NCBI GenBank assembly: GCA_002010305.1
Contig: MTND01000022.1
Location: 110,128-174,127 of the forward strand
From: Archaeoglobi archaeon JdFR-42
GTDB lineage: Archaea > Halobacteriota > Archaeoglobi > Archaeoglobales > JdFR-42
Reading direction: 5' to 3'
DNA: 64,000 nt
The position numbers were made by a program, and so were the translations under genes. Within the stretch, counting starts at the first letter, position 1. Every line of letters begins with the position of its first letter. Positions 25,232 through 64,000 of the stretch are shown in pieces. Under the pieces are notes generated by a model, which did no database searches, was not told the origin of the DNA, and saw nothing but the letters and a program-made list of their open reading frames with translations.

Positions 25232-25294
25232 ATGCAAAAAAAGGGATATATAGGATAGAGGAAATTGCTTAATAATATATAAGTGGTGTGGTGT

Positions 25295-48749: not shown

Positions 48750-49403
48750 ATGGGGATTGTTAAAAATACAGGCATCATTCTAGCACTAGATGTGGTGGAT
48801 AGAGCAAAAGCTATAGAAATTGCAAAGAAAACGAGGGAATATGTGGATGCTATAAAGGTTGGATATCCTCTAGTGTTGAATACATCCATTGATGTGATAT
48901 CAGAAATAAGTAAAGTACAAAATGTAATTGCTGATTTCAAAATTGCGGATATACCATATGTCAGCAGGATAATTGCAGAAACAGCCCTTGAACATAGGGC
49001 AATGGGTGTAATAGTTCATGGATTTGTGGGTAGAGATGTGCTTCTGGCTATTAGAAATGTGACAGAAGCCTCTGATGCAGAGATGTACGTGGTAACAGAA
49101 ATGAGTCATCCTGGAGCGAGGGATTTCATAATGGAGCATACACAAGCTATGGCTGAAATGGCCGTTAAAGTTGAGGCAGATGGTGTTGTGGCTCCAGCAA
49201 CACGTCCAGAAAGAATCAAGCTCATCAGAGAAATTGTTGGAGATAGAAAGATCATCTGTCCCGGTGTTGGCGCACAGGGAGGAGAGATAAAGAAAGTTCT
49301 CTCTTACGGAGGAGATTTTGCTATTGTAGGTCGAAGAGTTTATAATTCGCCAGACCCTGCTGGTGAGGTCAGAGCGTTAATAAGAGAGATAAAAGGTAAA
49401 TGA
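48750..49403 (+). CDS. pyrF: orotidine 5'-phosphate decarboxylase
   Basis: Contains ILALDV, DAIKVG and ADFKIADIP. The ATG at 48750 follows GGTGAGAGG. Confidence 0.85.
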   Translation: MGIVKNTGIILALDVVDRAKAIEIAKKTREYVDAIKVGYPLVLNTSIDVISEISKVQNVIADFKIADIPYVSRIIAETALEHRAMGVIVHGFVGRDVLLAIRNVTEASDAEMYVVTEMSHPGARDFIMEHTQAMAEMAVKVEADGVVAPATRPERIKLIREIVGDRKIICPGVGAQGGEIKKVLSYGGDFAIVGRRVYNSPDPAGEVRALIREIKGK

Positions 49404-49594
49404 ATAAGAAAGTGGAATTTTCCAGTTTGGTGAGATATTCAGATCTTTCAATTTTTTCATGAGGAGAGATCCGCCTACACAAATCCCGGATGGATAAAAG
49501 ATTTCGAAAAAGTTCAGCAATTTTGAACTTCTCATAATGCAGGGTCAGCAGATAGGAAGAATGAGTATAAGAATGGGGATGGGAATGAATTAAC

Positions 49595-52003
49595 TCATTT
49601 TAACAACCTGTCCAGAAATACCACGAAATCCTCTGCCACACCTTCTTCTCCGGTGTTCAGATTGTTCACACAAAAAGGGCATGGAGTTATTATTTTCTCT
49701 GCTCCAACCTCTCTCGCCTGTTTAATCCTCTCTCTTGCAATGGCAGTACTCACTTTTGGATCATAAGCCCTCACTCCTCCACCAGCCCCACAGCAAAACG
49801 AGTACTCTCTGTTCCTTTCCATCTCCACAAAGTCTATATTCTGTATTTTTTTCAGTATTTCTCTGGGTTCTTCATATATCTCAGCATGTCTTCCCAAATG
49901 ACATGGATCATGATAGGTAATTCTGATATTATCGTCACTTTCCATCTCAGGGATCTCGCTGGCTAGAAATTGCACAATATGTTTAATATTGAATTCTCTA
50001 CCCGTCAGTGCTGGCAAATCCTGAGAAAGGGTTTTATAACACCCCGCACAGGATGTTACGATCAGTGGAGGATTTATATTCTCAAAAGCCTCGACGAGCT
50101 TTCTGGCATTTTTTTCGGCCACATCGTCCATACCGACTCGTAGGAGTATGGACGCACAGCATGGCTCGTTTTCGAGCATGGTGAAGTCTATACCCAGCTT
50201 TTTAAGCAATGAGATAGTAGCTTTTGCAATCTCTTTCTCCCTCAATGTTGCCATGCATCCTGCGAAATACAGTAGGGTGTTTTTTCTGTTTTTTATCACT
50301 TCAAAAGCATCATCTAGCCTCTTTTCCTCACCAAATGGGTTGTTTTTAACCAGTATGTTCTCTCCAAATCTGGTAAATTTCTCTGGAAACATAATATTCT
50401 TCCTCCAGTAATGAACCATATTTCCTATATCAATTCCGGTCAGGCAGACCTTTTCACACAGCTTGCAGGTAGAACAGTAATGGAATATATCTCTACTACC
50501 ACCATAACCGCTTGCTATGACCTTGGCCCTAGGAGTATATGCTTCATTTTTTGTCACCACATATATGGGGCATTTTCGACAGAACCCACAGAATGTGCAT
50601 TTTATTAGCTCTCCAAGTCCATCTGGAAAATCAGGAGGAGAATCGAGGATAGTCTCGACCTCATCAGGTATATCCATTTTTCCAGGATTCAGGATTCCAT
50701 CTGGATCGAAAACTTTTTTAAGAGCTTTTATAGTCTCAATTTGCTCTTTTTTGAAGTATCTTGCCCTGATCAATCCCATACCATGCTCTGCAGAGACAGT
50801 TCCTCCTATAGCTCTCACAAATTCGTGAAATTCCTCATAGAATTTTTTCATATTATTTTTCATATCTGAGTTATGAATATCGATAGAAGTGGTTACGTGG
50901 ACATTGCCATCTCCAAAATGACCGAAGGATGCATTGAATATTCCATATTTATCCGATAATTCTTTAACTTTATCCATAAGTTGGGGTATTTTTGAGATGG
51001 GCACTGCTACATCTTCTACCACAGGTACAGCTCTGTAGCCTCTGGCAATATTGGATACAGCTGGATATCCAAATCTCCGAATCTTCCATAATTCATCTCT
51101 CTCTCTTTCATTCTTAGCTACGATAAATCCATCTAGATGATCCTTTATCTTTTCAAAATCTCCATCAGAAAGTTCTAGCAGAACAAGGATCCCCTCTTCT
51201 ATCTGAAGGTTAAAGATGTCTCTAACAGCTTTCAGAAAACCTGGGTCCATCACTTCGATTATATGTGGAAGGACACCTTCTCCATACAGGGCTGTTATGA
51301 AATCAGCAATCTCTTCATAACTGTTGAAATATGATGTTGCGGTGACGATATCCATTTCTCTTGGCAATAGCCTGAGATAAGCTTTTGTTATTACGCCAAA
51401 CACACCTTCAGTGCCAACAAAGAGATGGGTTAGATCCAGACCTTCAGAGTTTTTAAGGGCCATCGAACCAGTCTGGATTATCTCCCCCTTGCCGGTAACA
51501 ACTTCCAGCCCAAGAATATAGTTTCTCGTTGTTCCGTATCTAACACCCCTCATTCCACTGGCATTGGTGGATATCATCCCTCCGATAGTACATACACTGC
51601 TACTCCCTGGATCAGGAGGAAATAGAAGATTGTAATCCTTCAAAAGGGAGTTAAGATCCTCCAGAACTACTCCAGGCTCTACTACAGCAACCAGGCTTGT
51701 TGGATCCACGGAGATAATCTTGTCCATCCTTGAAAGATCCATGATTATGCCACCTGCTACGGGAATAACTGCTCCGGTAACACTAGTACCAGCTCCTCTG
51801 GGGGTGACAGGTATTTTACGGTTTCTTGCAAATTTTATGATTCTGACCACTTCATCGGTAGATTCAGGGAATACGATGGCCTCTGGACTCCCAGTGAATA
51901 TAGAGGCATCAAAGGAATAGGGTTTGGTGTATTTAACCCCTTCATACACCCTGTCTCTTCCAAGTTCCTTTTCCAGCATTTCAATAAAATTCAAATTGGC
52001 CAT
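49595..52003 (-). CDS. fused FAD-linked oxidase (GlcD/D-lactate dehydrogenase-like) plus 2x[4Fe-4S] and CCG-domain (GlcF/HdrD-like) oxidoreductase
   Basis: About 800 aa. N-terminal FAD PCMH domain (PRGAGTS), ferredoxin motifs CTFCGFCRKCP and CSTCKLCEKVC, and CCG motifs (CCASI, FCCGAGGG). The likely start is MANLNF. Confidence 0.8.
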   Translation of the reverse strand: MANLNFIEMLEKELGRDRVYEGVKYTKPYSFDASIFTGSPEAIVFPESTDEVVRIIKFARNRKIPVTPRGAGTSVTGAVIPVAGGIIMDLSRMDKIISVDPTSLVAVVEPGVVLEDLNSLLKDYNLLFPPDPGSSSVCTIGGMISTNASGMRGVRYGTTRNYILGLEVVTGKGEIIQTGSMALKNSEGLDLTHLFVGTEGVFGVITKAYLRLLPREMDIVTATSYFNSYEEIADFITALYGEGVLPHIIEVMDPGFLKAVRDIFNLQIEEGILVLLELSDGDFEKIKDHLDGFIVAKNERERDELWKIRRFGYPAVSNIARGYRAVPVVEDVAVPISKIPQLMDKVKELSDKYGIFNASFGHFGDGNVHVTTSIDIHNSDMKNNMKKFYEEFHEFVRAIGGTVSAEHGMGLIRARYFKKEQIETIKALKKVFDPDGILNPGKMDIPDEVETILDSPPDFPDGLGELIKCTFCGFCRKCPIYVVTKNEAYTPRAKVIASGYGGSRDIFHYCSTCKLCEKVCLTGIDIGNMVHYWRKNIMFPEKFTRFGENILVKNNPFGEEKRLDDAFEVIKNRKNTLLYFAGCMATLREKEIAKATISLLKKLGIDFTMLENEPCCASILLRVGMDDVAEKNARKLVEAFENINPPLIVTSCAGCYKTLSQDLPALTGREFNIKHIVQFLASEIPEMESDDNIRITYHDPCHLGRHAEIYEEPREILKKIQNIDFVEMERNREYSFCCGAGGGVRAYDPKVSTAIARERIKQAREVGAEKIITPCPFCVNNLNTGEEGVAEDFVVFLDRLLK

Positions 52004-52322
52004 CTCTCTCAACGGTAGTTGTTGGATAAGTAAATAAGCTTTCTGGGATTGATGCGACTTAACACACATCCTATTGGCTGATATCTAGAAACATATAATG
52101 AGATTGAATTTTTGTAATTCAGGAGATATTTCAGGTAATTCTCTTTCAATATATCTATCACATCTAAACATAGTGCTGTAAAAGCTATGAATTAAAATCA
52201 GTAAATTATAAGGTAAACAAATTTTGTTTCTAAATTCCTTATTTCCAAAAACTATTTAAATCAATCATTTAGATAACTGCTTGGGATGAATAGGTCATTC
52301 GGATAACTATGGAGGTGATGGG

Positions 52323-53180
52323 TTGAATAGATTCCTGATACTGGTAGTTCTCGTTGCATCTATTGCTGTAGCTACTGCCGAGAACAGCTGTGTAGATTGC
52401 CATAAATCTGTATCTGCTTTTAAACCTGAAGAAATGAGGTTCAATGAAATAAGAAAAGAACACCTTGAGAGGGGTGTATCCTGTTCCCTTGAATGTCATG
52501 AGGACCTCCTTTCAAAATTGGCAAAGAGCAATTACATTCAATGGAGTTCGTCAAAACATGCAATCAGTGGTGTAACTTGTGATAGGTGTCATGGAGGTAA
52601 TCCTGAAACAAGGGATAAGGAAAAGGCACATACTGGGGTTCTCAGGGCCTCAGACCCCGCTAGTTCAATTTATTACATGAACATTCCCTCGACGTGTGGT
52701 GTATGCCATGAGAAAGAATTAGCGGAGTTTACTTTATCAGAGCATTATAAGAAGCTTGAGAACGTTGAATTAGCCCCAACTTGCTCTACCTGTCATCTAC
52801 CTCATGGATTTAAGATCCCAGAGACCACTAACATGGCTGAAATCTGTCAGAATTGTCACAATGGAAATATTGGAGCAGATCCTGAAGTCCCACCTAAAGC
52901 ACAGGAATTACTCAAAGAAAGTTTTGAGCTTAAATCATTGATCAACAAAATGAAAGCTGAAGGAAAAGACGGAGAGAACATTAAGAAAGCGGAGCAAATC
53001 TTGGATACTTTTCCGGTTACTTGGCATGAGTTTAACATAGAAAGACTTGAGGCCGAGATTGATGCAGTGAAGAGTCTCTTAGGGGTTGAAGAAGAGGCTA
53101 AATCAGTTCCAGGTTTTGAGCTCTCAATCATAATTGCAGCCTTTGCTACAGTTATGCTGTTAAGGAGGTTCACAAAATGA
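52323..53180 (+). CDS. multiheme c-type cytochrome (5 CxxCH plus 1 CxxxCH) with signal peptide and PGF-CTERM-like anchor
   Basis: Heme motifs CVDCH, CSLECH, CDRCH, CGVCH, CSTCH, CQNCH. The C-terminus is VPGFELSIIIAAFATVMLLRRFTK. TTG start 5 nt after GGAGGTGA. Confidence 0.85.
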   Translation: MNRFLILVVLVASIAVATAENSCVDCHKSVSAFKPEEMRFNEIRKEHLERGVSCSLECHEDLLSKLAKSNYIQWSSSKHAISGVTCDRCHGGNPETRDKEKAHTGVLRASDPASSIYYMNIPSTCGVCHEKELAEFTLSEHYKKLENVELAPTCSTCHLPHGFKIPETTNMAEICQNCHNGNIGADPEVPPKAQELLKESFELKSLINKMKAEGKDGENIKKAEQILDTFPVTWHEFNIERLEAEIDAVKSLLGVEEEAKSVPGFELSIIIAAFATVMLLRRFTK

Positions 53181-53716
53181 AGGTTTTCTTGCCCTTTCTG
53201 ATTCTTTTTCTTGTAGTCTATGTAGTTTCTGCCACTCCAGAATACGGTGCGAAAGAAAGCAGAAATTGCCCGTTCTGTCATGTGTCAGGAGATTATACTA
53301 GGCTTAATGAAAGGGGGAAATACTACCTTCAGCATAACTATTCTTTTGAGGGATTTATAGAAAAACCCAGAGAAATCAAAAGTAAAGGTGAAGAGCTTTA
53401 TGTAGAATACTGTGAAGGATGCCATGGAAAGAAAGGTGAGAATTTTAATATCGCTGGCCAGGGCAGTGCTGCAAAGGATGCTATAGAAAACGGGAGGATG
53501 CCACCTGGCACTAAGCTGGATCTGAGTGAAAACGATTTGAATGAACTTGTGGCATATATCGATTCACTGGGTGATCAAACATCGGTAAAGGAATCAAGCG
53601 AATCTGAAGTTAGTTATGAGAGTCTGGGCTTTCACATGCCCACATGGGATGTTGGTACCATGGTCGTCCTGATACTTTTTGCTACAATGTTCTTTGTTAG
53701 ATACTGGAGGCTATAG
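53177..53716 (+). CDS. diheme c-type cytochrome with C-terminal TM anchor
   Basis: 179 aa. CPFCH and CEGCH with a GRMPPG Met-ligand region. 4-nt overlap with the upstream gene. Confidence 0.75.
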   Translation: MKVFLPFLILFLVVYVVSATPEYGAKESRNCPFCHVSGDYTRLNERGKYYLQHNYSFEGFIEKPREIKSKGEELYVEYCEGCHGKKGENFNIAGQGSAAKDAIENGRMPPGTKLDLSENDLNELVAYIDSLGDQTSVKESSESEVSYESLGFHMPTWDVGTMVVLILFATMFFVRYWRL

Positions 53717-53727
53717 GGGGTGGGATT

Positions 53728-53994
53728 ATGATAGTGGAGAAAATTGAGAAAGTGGAGAGAAGCCCAAGAGCGGTGAAAATTGGAAGTATAGCTCTTATAG
53801 TTGAGGTAAGTATAGCAGCCCTTTTAAGCTTGTATCTCATTTATCTGCTTGCCCAGCCTCTGACACCTTATGAGATGAGTGTAAGAGTTGGTATGATTCT
53901 ATCTGGTATATTTTTCACAGGTGCAGCCATTGTCTACACCGTCGTGAAAGGATTACTTGATGATGAGTTTGTGACAGTTCTGGAGGAGGATTGA
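53728..53994 (+). CDS. small two-TM membrane protein
   Basis: 88 aa with two hydrophobic helices, embedded in the Rieske/cyt b operon. Confidence 0.5.
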   Translation: MIVEKIEKVERSPRAVKIGSIALIVEVSIAALLSLYLIYLLAQPLTPYEMSVRVGMILSGIFFTGAAIVYTVVKGLLDDEFVTVLEED

Positions 53995-53995
53995 G

Positions 53996-54463
53996 ATGGA
54001 ACGAAGAAACTTCTTAAAACTCATAGGAGGAATATTTGGAGCCATCCTTGCCATCGATATAACTGGAACTCTTATCAGGTTCCTCTGGCCTACAACTACT
54101 GGAAGTGTAACCTCTGGAGAAACTAAGGTCCTTGAGAAAGGAGAGAAACTCAACGTATGGGAGGCAAAACACTTCAATTTCATGGGTAAAGCTGCTATCA
54201 TCGTCAGAACCCCATCTGGTTATCATGCCTATGGAGCCATATGCACACATCTCGGGTGCATAGTCTCTCAAGAACTTACAGATGACGACCTTATGATATG
54301 TCCCTGCCACATCGGCCTCTACGATCCGGAAACAGGCGATGTGGTGGCAGGTCCACCACCGAAACCTCTTCCAGTTATAACAATTGAGGAAAGGGATGAT
54401 GGAGTTTACGCCCTTGGTTGGGAGGATCCAGAGTATCTAAAATCCCTTTCAATGTATGCTTGA
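53996..54463 (+). CDS. Rieske [2Fe-2S] protein with Tat signal
   Basis: 155 aa. Contains MERRNFLK, CTHLGC and CPCHIG. Confidence 0.85.
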   Translation: MERRNFLKLIGGIFGAILAIDITGTLIRFLWPTTTGSVTSGETKVLEKGEKLNVWEAKHFNFMGKAAIIVRTPSGYHAYGAICTHLGCIVSQELTDDDLMICPCHIGLYDPETGDVVAGPPPKPLPVITIEERDDGVYALGWEDPEYLKSLSMYA

Positions 54464-54473
54464 GGTGCCCATT

Positions 54474-55145
54474 ATGATGAAACAGCTTTACGAGTGGATT
54501 GATAAAAGGACTAAATTGAGTAAATACTGGGAACCTATCGCTAGACATCCTGTCCCATCTCATGTATCTGATGGAGTTAGAACAAATCCGGTTTATTGTC
54601 TCGGTGGAATAGCATTTTTGTGCTTCATAATACTGGTTATCACTGGAATGTTCTTGGCCATGTATTACAAACCGACACCAGATGAAGCCTATGAGAGTGT
54701 GCGGTATATCATGGAAGAAGTACCTATGGGGGCTTTCATCAGAAGTGTCCATAGTTGGGCAGCAAACATGATGATTGCAGCAGTAATGCTCCATATGATT
54801 AGAGTGTACTTTACTGGAGCCTACAAGCCTCCAAGAGAACTTAACTGGGTAATAGGAGTCGTCCTGTTCTTGATCACCACAGCGTTTGGCTTCACTGGAT
54901 ACTTGCTTCCGTGGGATCAGTTAGCGTACTGGGCGACGACGATTGGAATTCAGATAACCTCAGGCATTCCAGTAGTTGGACCTTATGTAGGAAAACTGTT
55001 GATGGGTGGAGGTGAAATTGGACCCAATACTCTTTCGCGATTCTACGCAGTCCACACCATCATATTACCCCTCACCCTTGCTCTGCTGCTGGGAATCCAC
55101 TTTTTATTGGTTAGAATACATGGGATCTCCGGGAGGTATTTGTGA
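54474..55145 (+). CDS. cytochrome b6-type (N-terminal half of cytochrome b)
   Basis: 4-TM pattern with conserved His pairs (SVHSWAANMM...MLHMIRV; FYAVHTIILP...IHFLLVRIHG). The ATG follows GAGGTG. Confidence 0.9.
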   Translation: MMKQLYEWIDKRTKLSKYWEPIARHPVPSHVSDGVRTNPVYCLGGIAFLCFIILVITGMFLAMYYKPTPDEAYESVRYIMEEVPMGAFIRSVHSWAANMMIAAVMLHMIRVYFTGAYKPPRELNWVIGVVLFLITTAFGFTGYLLPWDQLAYWATTIGIQITSGIPVVGPYVGKLLMGGGEIGPNTLSRFYAVHTIILPLTLALLLGIHFLLVRIHGISGRYL

Positions 55146-55549
55146 TGAGAGTTAGAGGTCTTTCGTTCTTTCCGAATTTTCTGCTCAGAGAAGTTGTAAT
55201 AATGTTTACTACGGCTGCGAGTATATTTCTCCTTGCATCTATTTTTCCAGCCAGTCTCCTAGATCCAGCGAACCCGTTTGAAACGCCAAAACCCATATTT
55301 CCTGAATGGTACTTCCTTTACGTTTATGGCTTTCTGAAATTCTGGACATGGGATATTGGGCCCATTAAAGCCAAGACAATGGGTATAGTGATCTCTATGG
55401 TATTTTTCCAGCTTCTGCTGATTCTTGTTCCATTTATTGACAGGAATACTGAGGTAAATCTGAAAAAGCGACCCATTGCTGTGATCCTCGGGGTGATAAC
55501 CATTGCGGCGGTGCTCTTCTTTACAATCTACGGAATCGTTTTCGAGTAA
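55142..55549 (+). CDS. cytochrome b C-terminal half / subunit IV (PetD-like)
   Basis: 135 aa with the PEWYFLYVYGFLK motif. Start overlaps the cyt b6 stop. Confidence 0.8.
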   Translation: MMRVRGLSFFPNFLLREVVIMFTTAASIFLLASIFPASLLDPANPFETPKPIFPEWYFLYVYGFLKFWTWDIGPIKAKTMGIVISMVFFQLLLILVPFIDRNTEVNLKKRPIAVILGVITIAAVLFFTIYGIVFE

Positions 55550-55801
55550 AAGCCATCTGGCAACAAAATTTTTAGCCCTTATTTTGATGACTATAGCAGT
55601 CGACAGAGCATTTTCAGCTGATATCTGGGGCTTTTTAATTCTTTTTGGTTTTTCAGGTGTATTAGCTCTTTATCCATTTATTAAAAAGTAACCTGTCCTT
55701 TGTTAGGTGACCCTGTTTTGTGTGTTGGATATATCCTAAAGTGTATCTTATAGCAGTCATGTGATGATTGTTCGTAGCATTCATCAGGATTAATTTTGGA
55801 T

Positions 55802-55843
55802 ATTGTCAGCAAAAACTGACAATTTGTAAAACATAGTTTTACA
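55802..55843 (-). repeat. bipartite palindromic element, copy D
   Basis: The + strand reads ATTGTCAG-CAAAAA-CTGACAA-TT-TGTAAAAC-ATA-GTTTTACA. Lies in the 650-bp gap between the Rieske/cyt b operon and the tetraheme-FeS-NrfD operon. Confidence 0.75.
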
Positions 55844-56205
55844 ACAGCTCTAATACAGTTCTGTGATACTTCCAGTAATTTTTAAGGCCAATTAAAGAAA
55901 TATCCATTCTCATTTTAGGTTGTGTGATCAGAGTTTGTGATTATACTTTAAGTGCTGTCTCTCTATCTTTTATATTTTACCTATCGCCCTCTGGTATGTT
56001 TTTTAGTCTTTTTTTCACCTAAGATTTATAGAATCATCGGTAAAGATATATTTTTTAAAAATCACCTGTATAGTCTGTTTGATATAGAAATTATCCTATT
56101 TAATAATGCATGAAATATTTATGTAATAAATCCATTTTCGAAAAATTAATATATGCATCGTTTAGAGTGAGCTTGGGTCTTTGTTATTTATTTGGAGGAT
56201 ATGAC

Positions 56206-56649
56206 ATGAGAAAAATCCATGTTAGGGTGGCAATGGTCTATATCGTGATTGCAATAATATTTCTGATAGTTAGGAGCTTTATTGTCCCCCCTTCATTTGG
56301 GGAATACGGCTGGTATCGTGGCGATTCGGTCAGTGAGATAATGAACCTCTCTGTCAAGCATGCCGGCTCATATTCCTGCTCGAATTGCCATCAAACGGAA
56401 TATAAGGCCTGGACTACCGGAAAACACAGCACAGTCAACTGTGAATCCTGCCACGGTCCTCTGAAATATCATGTTGATGATCCTGGAGGTAGTAAGGTTG
56501 AAGTTAATGCCACAAGGGAGTTCTGTGGTCTTTGTCATAATGAAAATCCCTCAAGACCGGAAGGTTTCCCCCAGATAAATCTTGAGAGCCATGGAAATGG
56601 TTTCACATGTGTGACCTGTCATAATCCCCATTACCCCTGGTTTGATTAA
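56206..56649 (+). CDS. membrane-anchored tetraheme c-type cytochrome
   Basis: N-terminal TM segment. Heme motifs CSNCH, CESCH, CGLCH, CVTCH. The ATG follows GGAGG. Confidence 0.8.
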   Translation: MRKIHVRVAMVYIVIAIIFLIVRSFIVPPSFGEYGWYRGDSVSEIMNLSVKHAGSYSCSNCHQTEYKAWTTGKHSTVNCESCHGPLKYHVDDPGGSKVEVNATREFCGLCHNENPSRPEGFPQINLESHGNGFTCVTCHNPHYPWFD

Positions 56650-56661
56650 GGAGAGGAGAGT

Positions 56662-57468
56662 ATGAAATCAACAAGAAGAGAATTCATAAAAAACTTTGGG
56701 AAGATAATCCCTGTGGTGTTTTTTGGTCTCTCTTTCAAAAAATTTATCGAGACTGTATCAGCAAAAGAAAATGCCTCGACTCATCATCCTGGCGGGGACT
56801 ATGACTGGAATCAGCATTATTATGCCTTTGTGGTCGATTCAACAAAATGTATTGGGTGTGGAAGATGTGTTGTAGCTTGTAAGGAAGAAAATGATGTCCC
56901 AAAAGAACCCTTTTATTTCAGAACGTGGGTAGAACGGTATGTTTGGCTGAATGGTGAGGAAGAAGTAAAAGTTGACTCTCCGAATGGAGGGTTTAATGGT
57001 TTTCCTGTGATATACGATGAAAAAGAGATACGGAAGAGTTATTATGTTCCAAAATTATGCAATCAATGTGATCGCCCTCCATGTGTGCAGGTATGTCCTG
57101 TAGGGGCCACATATAAAACCAATGATGGTGTAGTTTTGGTGGATGAGAAATACTGCATTGGATGTCGATACTGTATTCAGGCATGTCCATATGGTGCCAG
57201 GTACCTGTATCCGAAACATGGCGAAAGAGAGCCCAGAAGGAACACTGCCGATAAATGTACGTGGTGTTATCACAGGATCACCAAAGGTCTAAAACCAGCC
57301 TGTGTTGAGGTATGTCCTGTAGGGGCTAGGAAATTCGGGGATTTGAAGAATCCAGATGATGAGATTAATAGAATTCTTGATGAGAATCGAGTGGATGTCC
57401 TGAAGCCAGAAGCAGGGACAAGGCCAAAAGTGTTCTACCTTGGAATAGATGGTGCGGAGGTGAGATAG
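56662..57468 (+). CDS. NrfC/PsrB-type 4Fe-4S cluster protein with Tat signal
   Basis: 268 aa. STRREFIK plus four ferredoxin-type Cys groups (CIGCGRCVVAC, CNQCDRPPC, CIGCRYCIQAC, CTWCYHR). Confidence 0.85.
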   Translation: MKSTRREFIKNFGKIIPVVFFGLSFKKFIETVSAKENASTHHPGGDYDWNQHYYAFVVDSTKCIGCGRCVVACKEENDVPKEPFYFRTWVERYVWLNGEEEVKVDSPNGGFNGFPVIYDEKEIRKSYYVPKLCNQCDRPPCVQVCPVGATYKTNDGVVLVDEKYCIGCRYCIQACPYGARYLYPKHGEREPRRNTADKCTWCYHRITKGLKPACVEVCPVGARKFGDLKNPDDEINRILDENRVDVLKPEAGTRPKVFYLGIDGAEVR

Positions 57469-58695
57469 ATGAGTGAATTGTTGTGGCAGGCATTACAGCA
57501 GGTCCAGGGATATGTGTATCCTAATGAAATTGAGGTTAACTGGAGCATTCTTATAGTATTCTATCCTTACATTACAGGATTGGTGGCGGGTGCTTTTATT
57601 GTGGCCTCATTGGAAAGAGTATTTAAAGTTGAGGCTGTGAAACCGACATATCGGCTAGCCCTCCTTACAGCACTGGCCTTTCTCCTCGCTGCTCCCTTAC
57701 CTCTTGTTGCTCATCTTGGTCATCCAGAAAGAGCTTTGGAAATTATGTTTACTCCCCACCTCTCATCAGCTATGGCAGGTTTTGGATTTGTTTATGCATG
57801 GTATCTCCTTATAGTCCTCCTCCTCGAGATAGGATACGATTACAGAAAAGATGTTGTCAAATGGGCTCGAACTAAAAGAGGTCTGAAGGGATTCCTCTAT
57901 CGCCTTCTGACTATGGGTGATTACGATATAAGTAAGGAAGCCCTGAAAAAAGATGAGAAACTTGTAGGGATAATAACTGTTATAGGCCTTCCATCAGCAG
58001 CATTCCTTCACGGCTATGTGGGTTTCATTTTTGGTAGCGTTAAAGCAAATCCTTGGTGGAGTTCTCCCCTCATGCCAATAATCTTTCTTTTTTCCGCCAT
58101 GGTCTCAGGTATAGCCCTTGTTCTTCTTATCTATATGGCGAGCACTAAGCTCAGAGGCAAAAAGCTCGACATGAAGTGTACAGACACATTAGCAGGTTAT
58201 CTCCTGTATACTTATGTTCTGGATCTCAGCCTAGAATTCATGGAAATTGCCCATCTGGTATATGTTCAGGAAGAGGGCATAGATGCCATTCTCACTCTGA
58301 TAAACGATAGGCTTTTCCTCTCCTTTATCGTAATTCAGATATTCCTTGGGACTATAGTGCCAATTTTCCTGCTCGTTATGGCAAAAACAGGTCTTTTCAG
58401 AGCCACCATCAGAAAGATCTTCTATATTTTTGCGGCACTTCTTGCGATGATAGGCGTACTTGCGATGAGATGGAATGTGGTCATTGGCGGGCAAATGCTA
58501 TCCAAGAGTTTCAGAGGGTTTTCAACCTACATACTCCCCATCTTTGGGATCGAGGGCCTTCTGACTGCCGTAGCCATATTTATCCTTCCATTTGTGCTAT
58601 TGTTCATTTTTGTCAAGGTACTCCCCCCTTGGGAAGAACCACCAATATGGGAATCTACTGAGCATCAGGCAGTAGAAGGAAATGGTGAAGGATGA
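57469..58695 (+). CDS. NrfD/PsrC-family quinone-interacting membrane protein
   Basis: 408 aa, about 8-10 TM segments. Start abuts the FeS gene stop. Confidence 0.85.
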   Translation: MSELLWQALQQVQGYVYPNEIEVNWSILIVFYPYITGLVAGAFIVASLERVFKVEAVKPTYRLALLTALAFLLAAPLPLVAHLGHPERALEIMFTPHLSSAMAGFGFVYAWYLLIVLLLEIGYDYRKDVVKWARTKRGLKGFLYRLLTMGDYDISKEALKKDEKLVGIITVIGLPSAAFLHGYVGFIFGSVKANPWWSSPLMPIIFLFSAMVSGIALVLLIYMASTKLRGKKLDMKCTDTLAGYLLYTYVLDLSLEFMEIAHLVYVQEEGIDAILTLINDRLFLSFIVIQIFLGTIVPIFLLVMAKTGLFRATIRKIFYIFAALLAMIGVLAMRWNVVIGGQMLSKSFRGFSTYILPIFGIEGLLTAVAIFILPFVLLFIFVKVLPPWEEPPIWESTEHQAVEGNGEG

Positions 58696-58709
58696 AATTG
58701 AATAAACAA

Positions 58710-58750
58710 AGGGCATGTAATCTTACTTTTTATGCCCTCTCTTTATTTTA
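58710..58750 (+). terminator. hairpin plus T-rich tract after the NrfD-like gene
   Basis: AGGGCAT-15 nt-ATGCCCT followed by CTCTTTATTTT, 15 nt after the stop. Confidence 0.4.
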
Positions 58751-59392
58751 AATTGAGTTATTTCAGAAAAACCAATCTATTAGCATACTCTAATAACAAT
58801 TCACGCTCTCAATATGGTCCAGAAGTTGAGCAATCACAATTATATGTTCCAGAGTTCTTGTCTCTAGGCTGGTCTCTAGATTTAACAGTCTCTATTACTA
58901 TATCTACCATGTTATTTTAATGTTAATCCCTGCGTTACTGTTTTGAAATATTATATTCTCGTTCCAGAATCTTTCTTGTTCATTCTCTCCAAAGGAGTAA
59001 TATTGTGTCATTCAGAAGAATGAATTAATGTAACTAACTCTTTTCACAGTACTTTTCTTAATTTAAGTTAAAATACACTTCCTGTTAGCCTTTTTCCAGA
59101 AAATAAGGTTATATTACAGTTTGTTAGCGTAAGACATGAGTAATAAATATCTTCTCCCATTTATGTATAATTTTAGCTGTAGGTTTCCCCCTGGATTACT
59201 CTTATGAAATATTAAAATTCAAGTGAAGTGTACAAATGTGGTGAAAACTTCTCATTGCATTTTTTGTATATGTGTAGTTGGACATAATTTTAGTAAAGGA
59301 ATTTACCTATAATCCCAACAATTACTTTCAAAAAAGGTACTCTCTATGCCGTATATAGAATTACAAAAATTTGTAAAAACCTCTGTGTTGGA

Positions 59393-60250
59393 CTATTTGT
59401 GACAGGTGGTGCAGACTAATACCTCTGATTTGTGAACAGATTTGTCTACATGGCAGGTGAGGCATATCTGACGGACAGGCCTCTCTTGATGTGGGAGATG
59501 ACAAGAAGAACACGCCCCTCTATGAGCAGTGACTCCATGTAACCCTTCAATAGGCACCTCATGACACGCTGTACATGGTAATGGTTTAATGGATTCATGA
59601 GGTCTGTGACACGTCTTACAGTCTTTACCAGAGTGCGCATTTGTTGTGATACTCATGATAGGTTTATATTCTCTGTCTGTGTGGCACTTCTCACATACAG
59701 TTTTCTCTGGAAGGAGAGATGTTTTTCCATGAACTGTAAACTCATGACATGTCAGACAATGAAAGTGCATTTTTGGTGGTAAAAATTGATCATGGCATTG
59801 ATCGCATGTGCTACTGAGTGGTTTAAATACATGTATGGTAGGAGCGTGACATGTGATACATTCTACGCCCTCATCCTCAACATGCTTTTTATGGCCGGGT
59901 GTATCGGCTATATAAGGCCATTTCTCTGAATGGGAGAAATGACAGTTCTCACAGCGTTCGTTTGGAACAATGGCGTGGCGAGAAACTTCTTCAGGCCTTT
60001 CTATCACATACTTGTACAACAGATCCATGCTCTCCTTCATACTCTGCTCATGGCATTTATGACATGTCACGTTGTTATGAGGACTTTCAGACCACTTTTC
60101 CCATGCAGATTCCATTATGTGGCAAGATCTGCAAAAAGCAGGGTCATTCTGAATGTAATCATATGTCCCGTAGACACCCACCCCTATTATGATGAGGAAA
60201 ACAATTATGAAAGATACCAGCATTTTCGGTGATAATATCACTGAAACCAC
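59393..60250 (-). CDS. dodecaheme c-type cytochrome, NapC/NirT/NrfH-like N-terminus with TM anchor
   Basis: 285 aa with 12 CxxCH motifs. N-terminus FCRSCHIMESAWEKWSESPH...CHKCH. Confidence 0.85.
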   Translation of the reverse strand: MVSVILSPKMLVSFIIVFLIIIGVGVYGTYDYIQNDPAFCRSCHIMESAWEKWSESPHNNVTCHKCHEQSMKESMDLLYKYVIERPEEVSRHAIVPNERCENCHFSHSEKWPYIADTPGHKKHVEDEGVECITCHAPTIHVFKPLSSTCDQCHDQFLPPKMHFHCLTCHEFTVHGKTSLLPEKTVCEKCHTDREYKPIMSITTNAHSGKDCKTCHRPHESIKPLPCTACHEVPIEGLHGVTAHRGACSSCHLPHQERPVRQICLTCHVDKSVHKSEVLVCTTCHK

Positions 60251-60461
60251 CTTATATTATCTTCTATACCAGTACCACATTAATTAAGCTTGCGTTTTGT
60301 ATTAAATTTCATTATCTGTCGTTATATCAAATATTAACTGTTTAATGATTAGCTGAATGTTTCAACAATAAAGATAACTTAACATTCCATTTCGACTCTT
60401 AAATAACAACATATCTATATCTGGATAAAAAACAAAGTTGACACATCATGAGAGTCAAATA

Positions 60462-61445
60462 TTATCTCTCTGGATGACATATTTTACACGTATCTTTTTT
60501 TACTTCCGGTTTGTGAATTATTTCAGGATGGCATTGTATGCATTTCACTTTGTATGTGTTAACGTGGACTCCATGGACTTCGTAGAGGTTGAGAAGTTCA
60601 GTCATATTAGCATCTGGGTGGCAAATCTCACATTTCTCGTCCATTATCCCCTTCTTTATGGAGATATTGGAGTGACACATCTCACAGGGTATTTCTCGGT
60701 TAACGTGAATGCTGTGGGAGAATGTTTTTCCACCGTACATCAGATTTTCAGAGGGATATGGATGGCAGGAAGGACACCCAGAGACTGGAAAGCCAGAGGG
60801 TGTATGTTCGAAGTGGCATATCAGACAGGTGGAATTGGTAACCGCAATATGAGAACCTACCACAATTTGAGAATGGCAGCTCACACAGTTAAGCTTAATT
60901 ATTCCTCGTTTATACTCCATCAGATGTCGAGAGTGATTAAAATAGATAGTTTTCCCCCCGATCTCAGATGCCACGTCGCCAATTAAAAAAACATCTTTAT
61001 GGCACAGTATACAATTTTCATCGGATATATTAGCACCCAGGAATTTAAATGGAGTAGAACGTGGTAAGACCACAGAGAGTGAGTGAAAACTCCCTTCGAG
61101 GAAATTCTCTACCCCTTCCCCGTAGTGGCATTTGTAGCACTTCACATCCCTGTGAGTGGACTCATTCCATGCATTAAAATAAGACTCCATTACATGGCAT
61201 ACTTCACAGATCCGGGGATTTGAAGAATATTCAATAGAAATAAAAGATAAAAAAACAGCAATTATCAAGATAATAGGTAACACCATGAGAATATAACCCT
61301 TATGAACTCTTTTGACCTCAATTAGCCCTTCACCTACCCTTTTGTACTCTTTGAGACAAAGCTCGCACTTATAAATAGGACCAATCTTTTTATTTATATT
61401 TCCACAGTTAGGACATTCCCAAGATTCATACCTTTCTCTTTTCAT
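60462..61445 (-). CDS. decaheme c-type cytochrome with N-terminal zinc ribbon, TM anchor and NapC/NirT-like start
   Basis: 327 aa. CPNCGN-x12-CELC, then a TM segment, then 10 CxxCH motifs (CEVCHVMESYFNAWNESTH...). Confidence 0.85.
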   Translation of the reverse strand: MKRERYESWECPNCGNINKKIGPIYKCELCLKEYKRVGEGLIEVKRVHKGYILMVLPIILIIAVFLSFISIEYSSNPRICEVCHVMESYFNAWNESTHRDVKCYKCHYGEGVENFLEGSFHSLSVVLPRSTPFKFLGANISDENCILCHKDVFLIGDVASEIGGKTIYFNHSRHLMEYKRGIIKLNCVSCHSQIVVGSHIAVTNSTCLICHFEHTPSGFPVSGCPSCHPYPSENLMYGGKTFSHSIHVNREIPCEMCHSNISIKKGIMDEKCEICHPDANMTELLNLYEVHGVHVNTYKVKCIQCHPEIIHKPEVKKDTCKICHPER

Positions 61446-61473
61446 AATGTTAGTTACAATTTACATTTCATGT

Positions 61474-61935
61474 TTATGTTCTATGAGGAAGATGACACAG
61501 TATACAGGAGTACTCAGGATTGTGAGTTGAGAGATTGACGGTTTTTATTGCAGAAGACTCATCTCTTGGAGGGATCGATTCATGGCATATGCCACAAAAC
61601 TCCCTTGAAGTATCTATTCGTGGCATGTAGTTACCATCATATGGATTTTCAATATGTTTCATACCAATTCCATGGCAGTTTTCACACTGAATCGAGCTAT
61701 GATGTTCACTCTCAATCCATAGACTATATTGCTCAAAATGGCATTTTGAACAGAGTTCTGGTGAGCCGTATTGAGGTAGTCGACTAGCCTCGATTTCCAT
61801 CCATTTTTGCACATATGTTTTTTCAATTGGAGGAGATAGATAGAAAACGTAAAAAATTATACCTGCGGCTACAAAAACAACCAGTACAAATCCAAAGAAA
61901 ATAGCCTTTTTCTTAATGTCCCCCTCGTCATTCAT
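61474..61935 (-). CDS. membrane-anchored tetraheme c-type cytochrome (paralog of 56206..56649)
   Basis: 153 aa. Heme motifs CSKCH, CENCH, CGICH, CILCH. Shares the (T/S)REFCG(L/I)CH block with the paralog. Confidence 0.8.
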   Translation of the reverse strand: MNDEGDIKKKAIFFGFVLVVFVAAGIIFYVFYLSPPIEKTYVQKWMEIEASRLPQYGSPELCSKCHFEQYSLWIESEHHSSIQCENCHGIGMKHIENPYDGNYMPRIDTSREFCGICHESIPPRDESSAIKTVNLSTHNPEYSCILCHLPHRT

Positions 61936-62698
61936 TTATCTCCTCTCCTGTCGCAATTGAGTGCTCCACTATAAACTTGTTCTCCAATCCGATGTAAAAT
62001 GTCTTTGGATCTGTCCCTTCCTCAGGAAGAAGGACATCCACACTCCCCTCTCTAAGTATTTTAGAAACCTCAGACGAAGGATTGTTTATATCTCCAAACA
62101 CTCTTGCTCCAGTTGGACAGGCCTGTACACATGCTGGTGAGAAACCTCTTTTGATTCTATGATAACAGTATGTGCATTTATCTGTCACTTTTTGATCAGG
62201 ATGAAGATAGGTTGCACCATAAGGGCATGCAGTTACACAGTATTTACACCCTATACAACTATTTTTGTCCACCAAGACTATTCCTTCAGCAGTATAAAAT
62301 CTTGCATTTACAGGACATACTCTGACACATGGAGCTTTCTGACACTGATTGCAAAGTTTCGGTACAAAAAAATGCTCTCCATCTCCCCATTTATAAGTTA
62401 AAAAAGGATTCTTCGAGGTATTCATTACTATCTTTTTTACATCAGATTCTGAATAAGGGATTTTTATTTTGATCTCGTACCCTTCGATCCATGTCCTGGA
62501 GATGGGTTTTTCAACAGGGATTTTGTTCTCAATTTTGCAGGCTTTAACACACATTCCACACCCAATGCACTTATCCGGGATTATACACATTACGAGATTT
62601 TTTTCTTCCTCTACTCCCCTAGTTGATTTAAAAGAAATTCCAGTTCCGAGGACGATGACTATAGTTCTCGTCAACAGCTCTCTTCTTGTAATCTTCAA
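61928..62698 (-). CDS. NrfC/PsrB-type 4Fe-4S cluster protein with Tat signal
   Basis: 256 aa. Contains KITRRELL, CIGCGMCVKAC, CNQCQKAPC, CIGCKYCVTAC and CTYCYHR. Confidence 0.85.
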   Translation of the reverse strand: MKITRRELLTRTIVIVLGTGISFKSTRGVEEEKNLVMCIIPDKCIGCGMCVKACKIENKIPVEKPISRTWIEGYEIKIKIPYSESDVKKIVMNTSKNPFLTYKWGDGEHFFVPKLCNQCQKAPCVRVCPVNARFYTAEGIVLVDKNSCIGCKYCVTACPYGATYLHPDQKVTDKCTYCYHRIKRGFSPACVQACPTGARVFGDINNPSSEVSKILREGSVDVLLPEEGTDPKTFYIGLENKFIVEHSIATGEEINE

Positions 62699-63958
62699 CT
62701 ATTCTCCCCTCCCGGTCTTCTCTTCCATGGTGCCTAAAATGGGCAGGATTTTTATACCAATGGTATAAATCAGTCCTGTTAGAGCAAAAAATCCTACCAC
62801 AGCCATGATTTCAAACACGTGTGGGCTATACATTTGGTAAGTTATGCCAGAGATCGATTTTCCCAAGAGGCCACCAATAACCAGATCATATCTCAGTACG
62901 AAAATTCCAATTATTGTCATGATTGAGGCTGCAAGGTTCCATTTGACACTTCTTCCAGTTATAGGAATAGCCAAGATTAGTATTGGTATAAGTGTTCCAA
63001 TTCCAAGCTCGAACACCCAGAAGTTAATCTTAAGAGGCCCATAAAGAAATATCTCGAGAGCTTCTTTTGTGACTGGAGAAGGAAAGTAGAATTTGGACAC
63101 AAATTTCCAAGCGATGAAGAACAGATCGACTACCAAAGCAAATCCAAGTACCACTCTAAGCATCTGTATAGAATCATAAATTTTTCCTTTGATTTTAACT
63201 CCCCTTGCCCAAAAAGTAATTATGCTTGAAAACATCAGAATCGCGGCTCCTGAGATGATGGCAGAGAGTATAAAGTATATAGGCATTAGAGGTCCATGCC
63301 AGAAAGGAAGGTACGTGACTCCAAATACAGCTCCTAGGTTACTGTGTGCTATGATGGCAACGAATACTGTTATGAATCCCAATACCTTTGCAAATTCGTG
63401 TTCCAATTTTCTCCGATATTTGGGCCTGTAAGATCCTGCAACTGGTTCTAGGAATTTTAATGAAATCAGCCCGTACAGAAACCTCCCTAGTGAGGAAGGT
63501 GATCGAATTGATAGTTGTATGATATCATCTCTCAGGATGAACCACATTTCAATTATCAGAAATACCATATATAAAGCGTAAAACATGATCATCCAGAACA
63601 TAAGAGAATATGGGTTTACATGGGCTAAAAAGGCAAATGGAGCCCTAAAAGGTCTTTCAATCTCTAAACCAATAATCATGAGACCCACTAGAATTGTCAC
63701 AAGGGCAAGAAGAAGCCCCATTCTCACTACCGGCTTCAAGCGAATAAATCCGAAGACTTCTCCAAGGCTTGAAACTATACAGAGTCCTGTCGTAGAAACC
63801 ACAAAGAAAACATAAGTAGCCACAAGGAGTCTCCATGGAACGCCTGCATAGCTCTCAAATGGCTGAGTGGGCATTATTGGTTTTGTATGAATCTGAACTA
63901 TCCCGTAAGCCCCCACTTCTATTAAAACTATTAGTACAAATAGCCAGATATAAAACAA
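62699..63958 (-). CDS. NrfD/PsrC-family quinone-interacting membrane protein
   Basis: 419 aa and polytopic. Abuts the FeS gene. Confidence 0.85.
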   Translation of the reverse strand: MFYIWLFVLIVLIEVGAYGIVQIHTKPIMPTQPFESYAGVPWRLLVATYVFFVVSTTGLCIVSSLGEVFGFIRLKPVVRMGLLLALVTILVGLMIIGLEIERPFRAPFAFLAHVNPYSLMFWMIMFYALYMVFLIIEMWFILRDDIIQLSIRSPSSLGRFLYGLISLKFLEPVAGSYRPKYRRKLEHEFAKVLGFITVFVAIIAHSNLGAVFGVTYLPFWHGPLMPIYFILSAIISGAAILMFSSIITFWARGVKIKGKIYDSIQMLRVVLGFALVVDLFFIAWKFVSKFYFPSPVTKEALEIFLYGPLKINFWVFELGIGTLIPILILAIPITGRSVKWNLAASIMTIIGIFVLRYDLVIGGLLGKSISGITYQMYSPHVFEIMAVVGFFALTGLIYTIGIKILPILGTMEEKTGRGE

Positions 63959-63968
63959 AAAATTATCT

Positions 63969-63997
63969 GGCAGGGAAATCCTGCCAATCTTTTTTTT
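63969..63997. terminator. GC-rich hairpin flanked by T/A runs (possible bidirectional terminator)
   Basis: GGCAGG-GAAAT-CCTGCC followed by AATCTTTTTTTT on the + strand. On the - strand it is followed by AGATAATTTTTT. Confidence 0.3.
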
Positions 63998-64000
63998 AAA

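Follow-up and report, generated by a model that had tools for sequence, protein, structure and literature searches.

A three-module multihaem cytochrome island in a deep Archaeoglobi lineage and its probable role as a respiratory electron exit

The 64,000-nucleotide window analysed here, positions 110,128 to 174,127 of contig MTND01000022.1 from Archaeoglobi archaeon JdFR-42, carries at positions 52323-63958 a compact island of respiratory genes in which multihaem c-type cytochromes are combined with a Rieske/cytochrome b complex and two NrfD-type membrane modules. To characterize it, we translated fifteen open reading frames (ORFs) of this interval, counted their haem-binding motifs and assigned protein families by Pfam, NCBIfam and direct motif inspection. 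The translations yield 37 CxxCH motifs plus one CxxxCH motif (CSLECH), the same count as in the original prediction from the sequence, and all of them are confined to exactly six ORFs; that prediction had spoken of seven c-type cytochromes but itself listed six counts, and six is the correct number. Translated in six frames, the 23,268 residues of the island contain 39 CxxCH motifs, compared with 4 in the 104,640 residues of the rest of the window, a roughly 44-fold excess in density over the other 52 kb that therefore does not reflect a composition effect. The remaining components that had been claimed are likewise all present, and were identified as a Rieske protein with a twin-arginine translocation (Tat) signal, a b6-type cytochrome b in two parts, two four-cluster iron-sulfur (FeS) proteins exported by Tat and two NrfD subunits (Table 1). 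Tat motifs are found on all FeS and Rieske proteins, and a signal peptide or single anchor helix on all cytochromes, which places the redox chain outside the membrane.

The gene arrangement is recovered in two independent public sequencing runs, whose contigs carry the island without a single difference at word depths of ~300x and ~240x and also cover the convergent junction between the NrfD1 and 12-haem genes, so that an assembly artefact is ruled out. The 10-kb flanks of the island encode no molybdopterin or other catalytic subunit. Furthermore, none of its cytochromes carries the CxxCK motif of catalytic NrfA, the only CxxCK being part of an FeS motif in FeS2, and among the island proteins there is no match to Cytochrom_C552 above the cut-off, with NrfC and NrfD equivalog scores far below theirs.

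Gene content of the island

Table 1. Coordinates and sequence features of the island genes and of two neighbouring genes discussed in the text (aa, amino acids; TM, transmembrane; E, E-value)
Feature	Position	Strand	Length (aa)	Haem motifs	Characteristics
Module A (52323-55549)
Hexahaem cytochrome c	52323-53180	+	285	5+1	Signal peptide; 5 CxxCH + CSLECH at residue 54; Pfam Cytochrome_C7 / c3_2
Dihaem cytochrome c	53177-53716	+	179	2	Signal peptide; 2 CxxCH; Cytochrome_CBB3 E 2e-11; TM helix 156-174
Small two-helix membrane protein	53728-53994	+	88		Two TM helices; conserved in Rieske/cytochrome b operon
Tat Rieske [2Fe-2S] protein	53996-54463	+	155		PF00355 E 2e-12; b6f PetC-like by NCBIfam
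Cytochrome b, b6-type N-terminal half	54456-55145	+	229		PF00033 E 1.5e-56
Cytochrome b C-terminal part, b6f subunit IV-like	55142-55549	+	135		3 TM helices; PF00032 E 4e-15
Module B (56110-58695)
Membrane-anchored tetrahaem cytochrome c (tetrahaem 1)	56110-56649	+		4	4 CxxCH; Pfam c7/c3
Tat four-cluster FeS protein, NrfC/DsrO/TtrB-like (FeS1)	56662-57468	+	268		Fer4_11 E 2e-24, 86 bits; TRREFI
NrfD1, integral membrane quinone-interacting subunit	57469-58695	+	408		PF03916 E 3e-39; 9 hydrophobic segments
Module C (64018-59393)
12-haem cytochrome c	59393-60250	-	285	12	12 CxxCH; TM helix 4-22; FCRSCHIM
10-haem cytochrome c	60462-61445	-	327	10	10 CxxCH; TM helix 52-70; ICEVCHVM
Membrane-anchored tetrahaem cytochrome c (tetrahaem 2)	61474-61935	-	153	4	4 CxxCH; weak c7/c3 matches
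Tat four-cluster FeS protein (FeS2)	61928-62698	-	256		Fer4_11 E 4e-24, 85 bits; TRRELL
NrfD2 membrane subunit, HmcC/HybB/QrcD-like branch	62699-64000, past window end	-			PF03916 E 5e-39
Neighbouring genes
GlcD-HdrD fusion	49595-52069	-			GlcD-type FAD dehydrogenase + HdrD-like part (2x[4Fe-4S] + two CCG domains)
Radical SAM/SPASM protein, AhbC/NirJ1-like	25283-26470	+			478 bits, below cut-off of 650

Module A is a Rieske/cytochrome b complex without a canonical cytochrome c1/f subunit, in place of which a dihaem (Cytochrome_CBB3) and a hexahaem cytochrome are encoded. The dihaem protein, which weakly matches the QcrC dihaem family of NCBIfam and is 65-70% identical to its counterparts in two related archaeal loci (L174 and L175, see below), probably stands in for cytochrome f/c1. 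In the hexahaem cytochrome the unusual CxxxCH site is invariant in 7/7 aligned homologues, and the C-terminus, which ends in ...SVPGFELSIIIAAFATVMLLRRFTK, comprises a PGF motif, a hydrophobic stretch and a basic RR..K segment, with a PGF-like tail retained in most of the homologues. Its scores against archaeal CTERM models stay below the cut-offs (Heimdall-CTERM 21.4 bits, cut-off 24; Loki-CTERM 17.0 bits, cut-off 19.9), as does that of one homologue's tail against PGF_CTERM (19.0, cut-off 24.5), although in sequence the tail resembles archaeal CTERM sorting signals. The 88-aa protein encoded between the dihaem and Rieske genes has no family match in Pfam or NCBIfam and is 73-77% identical and syntenic in L174 and L175, and 33% identical in a Methanosarcinales locus (L004).

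The Rieske protein carries an RRNFL Tat motif at residue 3 and the cluster-binding motifs CTHLGC at residue 83 and CPCH at residue 102. In the N-terminal half of cytochrome b, the histidine pairs H99/H113 and H200/H215 are separated by 13 and 14 residues, respectively, and a cysteine lies within a YCLGG motif at residue 47; from what is established for b6f complexes, we take this cysteine to occupy the haem ci ligand position and the 14-residue spacing of the second pair to denote the b6 type. With 292.5 bits for cytochrome b6 (cut-off 325) and 282.1 bits for ExtP (cut-off 290), its NCBIfam scores come near both cut-offs but stay below them; the likeness to ExtP, a model for Cbc6 cytochrome b, lends substance to the predicted resemblance to the Geobacter Cbc complexes. 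The subunit IV-like protein has PEWY at residue 54 and matches TIGR01156 (E 1.5e-11), and homologues of the window's cytochrome b with 40-43% identity are encoded by dozens of haloarchaeal genes. Across positions 54221-54467, at the 3' end of the Rieske gene and the 5' end of the cytochrome b gene, word depth roughly doubles, from ~310 to values of 450-650, and branches appear in the assembly graphs of two runs (X1 and X2), which suggests a second near-identical copy of ~250 bp in the genome or the community, possibly derived from a second Rieske/cytochrome b locus.

Module B consists of a tetrahaem cytochrome, FeS1 and NrfD1. The tetrahaem 1 ORF is probably over-extended by 32 codons, and its true start is likely the ATG at 56206 (147 aa) because homologues begin at MRKIH; the protein is 60% identical to its counterpart in JdFR-37 and 48% to that of Geoglobus acetivorans. 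FeS1 scores 200.9 bits against DsrO (cut-off 200) and 218 bits against TtrB (cut-off 416), and NrfD1 is 82% identical in JdFR-37 and 74% in G. acetivorans. Both NrfD subunits are assigned with a wide margin to PF03916, at 135.8 bits for NrfD1 and 135.3 bits for NrfD2 against a cut-off of 25.8.

Module C, on the opposite strand, comprises NrfD2, FeS2, a second tetrahaem cytochrome and the two largest cytochromes. The NrfD2 gene runs past the window end, and a metagenome annotation gives it 439 aa and a start at window position ~64018; beyond it lie a 96-aa three-helix ORF and then gyrA. Its best NCBIfam likenesses are to HmcC, HybB and QrcD, all far below the cut-offs (HmcC 47 bits, cut-off 550), and its only sequence match in the PDB is ActC of alternative complex III (ACIII; 6F0K_C, E 1e-4). 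Homologues of 55-63% identity occur in metagenome-assembled genomes (MAGs) of Archaeoglobaceae, where the NrfD-FeS-tetrahaem order is kept; in two related loci FeS2 is 59-62% identical (L171 and L172) and tetrahaem 2 is 43% identical at the equivalent position in L171.

The 10- and 12-haem genes, separated by 212 bp, had been described as NapC/NirT-like, a designation that holds for the N-terminal anchor and the first haems, the very first haem motif being of the NrfH type (CxxCHxM), and fails for the remainder. Indeed, PF03264 (NapC/NirT) is approached with 23.3 and 22.3 bits for the 12- and 10-haem proteins (cut-off 24.1), and TIGR03153 yields 41.8 and 46.1 bits, respectively (cut-off 134.2), neither protein having the tetrahaem architecture of that family. 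When the 12-haem protein is compared with NrfH (2J7A chain C), the FCxxCHxM region aligns with haem 1 in register (E 8e-5); neither M46 nor any of the 12 haem sites varies among 21 homologues, and CxxCHxM is common to 141 of the 153 members of the wider family. A metagenome gene call of 208 aa loses the transmembrane helix and the first three haems of the 12-haem protein. We therefore assign it the full 285-aa ORF, whose N-terminal part contains this helix and the invariant FCxxCHxM. Its AlphaFold2 model (mean predicted local distance difference test, pLDDT, 75) has no significant fold match in the PDB, the best hit having E 6.7.

The 10-haem protein adds a further domain, with a cytoplasmic four-cysteine zinc-ribbon-like segment followed by the transmembrane helix, the first haem in a CxxCHxM motif and the remaining haems. 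The WxCPxC...CExC motif of this segment (residues 1-48) is conserved in every close homologue, but in the wider NrfH-like multihaem family none of 149 representatives has it. Residues 8-45 form short strands with pLDDT 81-85 and are the only confidently modelled part of an AlphaFold2 prediction that is otherwise unreliable (mean pLDDT 38.6). The subfamily is found in Archaeoglobi only, represented by four clusters in a 5.8-billion-protein search and four genomes among species representatives.

Relatives of the island and the published locus

Comparative genomics retrieves homologues of the island, in rearranged form, in the MAG Archaeoglobus sp. JdFR-37 and in a second archaeal MAG, and parts of it in Geoglobus and in Methanosarcinales MAGs. 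Two JdFR-37 contigs, L175 (MTMY01000013) and L003 (MTMY01000042), share an overlap of 62 identical nucleotides inside the Rieske gene, and the joined island comprises 16 genes on one strand with 44 haem motifs and all three module types. They are arranged in the order small membrane ORF, tetrahaem, FeS, NrfD, 10-haem, 12-haem, hexahaem paralogue, hexahaem and dihaem, followed by the 88-aa ORF, Rieske, b6, subunit IV, tetrahaem 1, FeS1 and NrfD1, with identities to the window proteins from 36% to 89%. In the second MAG (L174) the gene order agrees with this one as far as the Rieske gene, where the contig ends. A contig from a sister sample (L171) has NrfD2-type, FeS, tetrahaem, 10-haem, 12-haem and hexahaem genes, that is, the module-C order with the hexahaem gene added, and in L170 the 10-haem/12-haem/hexahaem trio lies behind a module-B-like NrfD. 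Rearranged and yet adjacent in several Archaeoglobi, the three module types thus stay together, and the layouts in L170, L171 and JdFR-37 indicate that the 10-haem, 12-haem and hexahaem genes act as a cassette in front of which the NrfD module is interchangeable. In every locus examined, the 10-haem family gene lies directly downstream of an NrfD gene.

The predicted resemblance to Geoglobus-type archaea is borne out by G. acetivorans (L165), whose tetrahaem-FeS-NrfD-12-haem cluster is 48% (tetrahaem), 70% (FeS), 74% (NrfD) and 46% (12-haem, with all 12 haem sites) identical to the window proteins. This cluster is orthologous to module B and not to module C (NrfD 27%, FeS 42%), and its 12-haem gene comes after NrfD in the same orientation, whereas that of the window is convergent to NrfD1 and forms the tail of the module-C operon; the fetched locus has no adjacent Rieske/cytochrome b complex. 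Since the Geoglobus 12-haem gene is found behind a module-B-type NrfD and the cassette behind either NrfD type, the wiring originally drawn, in which NrfD, FeS and tetrahaem lead on to the 10- and 12-haem proteins, is an oversimplification. The NrfD2-type module stands alone in one Archaeoglobaceae MAG (L173) and is flanked by HdrD/CCG genes in an Archaeoglobus MAG (L172).

A likeness to ANME-2d-type archaea, also anticipated, is seen in two Methanosarcinales MAGs (L004 and L005), in which a hexahaem-dihaem-Rieske-cytochrome b cluster with 2-3 hexahaem paralogues lies beside a tetrahaem-FeS-NrfD homologue of module B; identities to the window reach 65% for cytochrome b, 42-46% for the hexahaem protein and 51-58% for NrfD1/FeS1. 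These loci differ from the window in the host lineage, in the hexahaem paralogues and in having no 10- or 12-haem genes in the fetched sequence. Similarly, the Methanoperedenaceae clusters described by Leu et al. (2020) combine a non-canonical bc1/b6f complex, two hypothetical proteins and 6-haem cytochromes, as well as NrfD, 4Fe-4S and multihaem proteins.

Beyond these, a bacterial-looking contig (L167, JGI 3300038380) encodes a 12-haem homologue (40% identity) between a two-component regulator and FeS, NrfD and molybdopterin oxidoreductase genes, and at a distance of 7 kb has a cluster of Rieske, cytochrome b and cytochrome c genes; outside Archaea, the building blocks of the island are therefore joined to a catalytic molybdoenzyme. 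The Geobacter Cbc complexes follow a common logic with the island, Cbc4 (CbcSTU) being a tetrahaem, FeS and NrfD-like unit. The multihaem cytochromes of the Ext/Cbc6 complex are not orthologous to those of the island, with no ExtM or ExtN matches for the 10- and 12-haem proteins, and because the host is an archaeon the island, unlike Geobacter, has no porin or outer-membrane part. Ext/Cbc6 itself (ExtMNOPQS) consists of the Rieske protein ExtO, the cytochrome b ExtP, the membrane protein ExtQ and 12-, 10- and 4-haem cytochromes (PMC5877670). ACIII and relatives such as Qrc and DsrMKJOP, respiratory complexes of solved structure, share with the NrfD modules an NrfD-type subunit, a four-cluster FeS protein on the periplasmic side and a multihaem cytochrome anchored in the membrane, at marginal sequence similarity, and the cytochromes of the island give weak matches to ActA. 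In contrast to these complexes, the island and its flanks lack a molybdopterin-like ActB/QrcB domain, a second NrfD-like subunit (there is one NrfD per module) and the cytoplasmic DsrK/DsrM partners.

The window is also contained in a 158.6-kb contig of a JGI metagenome. Its flanks are ordinary archaeal housekeeping genes, and GatB, 67-68% identical to many Archaeoglobi MAGs and ~60% to ANME-1, indicates a deep Archaeoglobi branch. Scans of a genome collection with protein patterns of cytochrome b and GatB yielded relatives only, at best 89% and 67-68% identical, and neither the 10-haem protein nor an exact 60-mer gave a match, so that the source genome is either absent from that collection or masked in it. 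Lateral transfer or mis-binning, suggested by cytochrome b and NrfD1 being 89% and 82% identical to JdFR-37 when GatB is 67%, was considered and dropped because the NrfD of G. acetivorans (74%) also exceeds the 65-68% GatB identity across Geoglobus and Ferroglobus MAGs; cytochrome b and the NrfD subunits may, to judge from such comparisons, simply be slow-evolving.

Boyd et al. (2019) described in Candidatus Polytropus marinifundus, a basal member of the Archaeoglobi from Juan de Fuca Ridge flank fluids, 'three contiguous operons' for a bc1-like Rieske/cytochrome b complex and two membrane complexes with multihaem cytochromes, and read them as a Q-cycle bc1-like complex and two membrane complexes for iron reduction or direct interspecies electron transfer (DIET) (PMC6474303, Fig. 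3d). Their Supplementary Table 1 for scaffold8 lists as flanking genes 137 (PF12900), 151 (PF07758), 157 (asnB), 177 (malic enzyme), 187 (thiamine pyrophosphate, TPP, enzyme) and 189 (pyruvate kinase), and at the locus 202 and 208 (multihaem cytochromes, MHC; PF14522 / TIGR03508), 206 and 207 (cytochrome b; PF00033, PF00032), 211 (MHC/nrfH; PF14537 / TIGR03153) and 212 (MHC/nrfH; PF14522 / TIGR03153) (PMC6474303). Over ~75 genes, with twelve listed genes compared, the window agrees with scaffold8 in order, numerical spacing and best Pfam/TIGRFAM families: the hexahaem gene corresponds to 202, the cytochrome b halves to 206/207, the tetrahaem gene to 208, the 12-haem gene to 211 and the 10-haem gene to 212 ('ORF 212'). 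The numbering intervals 151 to 157, 177 to 189 and 202 to 212 are exact, 157 to 177 and 189 to 202 require one small uncalled ORF each, and 137 to 148 requires three tiny ones; moreover, a PF12900 gene was found where it had been predicted, some eleven genes before the DUF2148 gene on its upstream side. In addition, a 2016 subsurface metagenome contains 100% of the 31-mers of the window, and those of the island are also fully represented in marine and hydrothermal metagenomes, a habitat signal that agrees with a Ca. P. marinifundus origin.

Judged by synteny and annotation tables, the window is very probably the published Ca. P. marinifundus locus or that of a near-identical strain, and most likely there is no difference between the two, the same locus having been re-assembled from later samples. 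The locus, its gene content and the electron-export hypothesis are thus almost certainly already in the literature, and our contribution is incremental. The published description counts four multihaem cytochromes and makes no mention of the CxxxCH haem site, of the tail that resembles a sorting signal, of the NrfH-type motif or of the zinc ribbon; what is added here are the gene boundaries, the b6-type details, these four features of the cytochromes, the cassette with its module swap and the joined JdFR-37 island.

A probable electron exit and its alternatives

We propose that the island probably serves as a respiratory 'electron exit', in which three menaquinol:cytochrome c oxidoreductase modules feed shared membrane-anchored cytochromes. 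In such a scheme, menaquinol would be oxidised in parallel by the three modules, the Rieske/cytochrome b complex operating a Q-cycle and the other two using their NrfD quinol sites and possibly NrfH-like heads. Electrons would then converge on a tethered pool formed by the hexahaem, 10-haem and 12-haem cytochromes, which could pass them through the pseudo-periplasm and on to an external acceptor, the candidates being Fe(III)/Mn(IV) minerals, a partner cell or possibly an outward-facing reductase such as nitrate reductase. The scheme builds on direct observations of the genes present, their cofactor motifs, their signals for export and anchoring, their homologies and their conserved clusters; from these we infer the direction of flow, the quinone species, the docking between cytochromes and modules and the final acceptor.

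Geobacter has branched inner-membrane electron exits that match such parallel entry. In archaea without an outer membrane, the route from the quinone pool to a mineral or partner is, to our knowledge, known from gene inventories alone, and we know of no archaeal Rieske/cytochrome b-multihaem complex or NrfD-FeS-cytochrome module that has been purified. A link to Fe(III) reducers is given by the cluster of G. acetivorans and by Geoglobus ahangari, which has comparable operons from GAH_00283 (4 haems) to GAH_00286 (12 haems) and from GAH_01253 (4 haems) to GAH_01256 (10 haems, NapC/NirT) (PMC4600277). Homologous cluster types, namely operons for NrfD, FeS and cytochrome proteins and a bc1/b6f complex accompanied by 6-haem cytochromes, were highly expressed in Methanoperedens when it oxidised methane in a Mn(IV)-dependent manner (PMC7082337), and the corresponding Methanoperedenaceae clusters are classed as menaquinone:cytochrome c oxidoreductases, the class that our scheme matches (PMC7327174).

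Several observations weigh against an electron exit of this kind. The curated family scores of the cytochromes and NrfD subunits all fall below their cut-offs. Characterised HmcC/HybB/QrcD members reduce quinone and do not oxidise quinol, so that with NrfD2 nearest to these proteins at least one module may run the opposite way. The locus sequence is present in no RNA run searched, and the identity with Ca. P. marinifundus is read from synteny and annotation tables. The island contains no terminal reductase, no S-layer-spanning cytochrome and no very large cytochrome with more than 12 haems, so that it does not encode the final transfer of electrons to an external acceptor. Finally, the published Ca. 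P. marinifundus genome encodes narGHJIK and sulfur-reductase-like operons, and metals are thus not the only candidate acceptor (PMC6474303).

This last point bears on the alternative that survives best, unlikely as we consider it, namely that the island mainly serves the respiration of nitrate or of other soluble nitrogen or sulfur oxyanions and that its Rieske/cytochrome b complex and NrfD modules send menaquinol electrons via the cytochromes to an outward-facing reductase encoded elsewhere. Both haloarchaeal NarBC and Methanoperedens have been proposed to use such a route to a nitrate reductase that faces outward, and besides narGHJIK in Ca. P. marinifundus (PMC6474303), such a role would be in keeping with the many haloarchaeal relatives of the cytochrome b and with the bacterial contig L167, where the 12-haem homologue sits amid molybdopterin oxidoreductase, NrfD and Rieske/cytochrome b genes. 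Set against this are the lack of any molybdopterin or catalytic subunit in the 10 kb on each side of the island, the retention of the cytochrome trio without a reductase gene in L170, L171, L174 and L175, and the distribution of the nearest orthologues of the tetrahaem-FeS-NrfD1 module and the 12-haem protein, which belong to obligate or facultative Fe(III) reducers.

A reversal of flow through all or part of the island, with electrons taken up from Fe(II), a partner cell or a periplasmic hydrogenase or formate dehydrogenase, appears somewhat more doubtful. Here the NrfD2 module would reduce menaquinone in the manner of Qrc or Hmc, and the Rieske/cytochrome b complex or module B would re-oxidise it. 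Both the likeness of NrfD2 to HmcC, HybB and QrcD, with ActC of ACIII as its only PDB sequence match, and the HdrD/CCG proteins that flank the NrfD2-type module in L172, reminiscent of Hmc/Tmc-type transmembrane complexes, speak for such uptake, and the related Ferroglobus oxidises Fe(II) with nitrate (PMC4429474). However, the likeness scores lie far below the respective cut-offs (47 bits against 550 for HmcC), no hydrogenase or formate dehydrogenase gene is found nearby, and the direction of flow is not derivable from sequence alone.

Lastly, it is improbable that the three modules are unrelated neighbours brought together by co-transfer or drift, with the 10- and 12-haem proteins acting as stand-alone NrfH/CymA-like quinol dehydrogenases without an NrfD partner: both large cytochromes do have the transmembrane helix and CxxCHxM head of NrfH-type quinol dehydrogenases, module order and orientation vary between the window, L175, L171 and L165, the NrfD2-type module occurs alone in L173 and Leu et al. 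inferred lateral transfer of such modules (PMC7327174), but the gene set, though rearranged, has stayed together in at least three lineages of the Archaeoglobi, and the 10-haem gene directly follows NrfD in every locus examined.

Within the framework of an electron exit, the 10-haem subfamily invites a more far-reaching and rather speculative reading, in which an NrfH-like cytochrome is coupled to the cell interior through its cytoplasmic zinc-ribbon/rubredoxin-like domain. Should the zinc ribbon bind a metal and a cytoplasmic partner, with the neighbouring GlcD-HdrD-type dehydrogenase, a regulator or assembly machinery as candidates, a haem wire on the outer face would be coupled to the interior, an arrangement undescribed for NapC/NirT/NrfH proteins; together with the 10-haem/12-haem/hexahaem cassette behind interchangeable NrfD modules, it would amount to a modular archaeal electron-export supercomplex. 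The locus is a compact, high-coverage example with all three module types and as such a good template for structural modelling and heterologous expression. It belongs to an alkane-metabolising candidate lineage without dsrAB, for which the feasibility of alkane oxidation depends on the electron sink.

Spacers, neighbouring genes and flanks

The 700-bp spacer between the convergent NrfD1 and 12-haem genes (58696-59392) contains no credible ORF and no Rfam match, and is largely deleted in a related strain. That relative, 90-95% identical and sampled in a hydrothermal-vent metagenome (X9), lacks 111 bp (55697-55809) and 385+242 bp (58683-59339) of spacer sequence and gives no coverage of 60982-63151 at the 90-95% identity threshold. 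Across 49000-64000, an Rfam scan returns one chance-level match only (E 0.08), and a repeat search detects only similarities between the two FeS genes that derive from their FeS motifs.

Both neighbouring genes named in the original prediction are present (Table 1). The GlcD-HdrD-like dehydrogenase, identified by Pfam and NCBIfam, is encoded divergently from the hexahaem gene at a distance of 254 bp, and a possible role is to link hydroxy-acid oxidation to the quinone-level chain; HdrD/CCG genes also lie beside the NrfD2-type module in L172, and a distant GlcD-HdrD homologue is found near the cytochrome b cluster in L004. The Ahb/NirJ-like gene is a radical SAM/SPASM gene with likeness to AhbC/NirJ1, and a putative AhbC-like product (12,18-didecarboxysiroheme deacetylase) would be consistent with a siroheme-dependent haem pathway supplying the many haems of the island.

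At the opposite end of the window, positions 1-2600 and the sequence upstream in the contig (L197, 11000-17000) have a guanine-plus-cytosine (GC) content of 0.37 and, apart from a HicB-like fragment and one of a DUF772 transposase, contain only ORFs that are tiny or unannotated; this low-GC stretch may be a mobile-element remnant between housekeeping genes.

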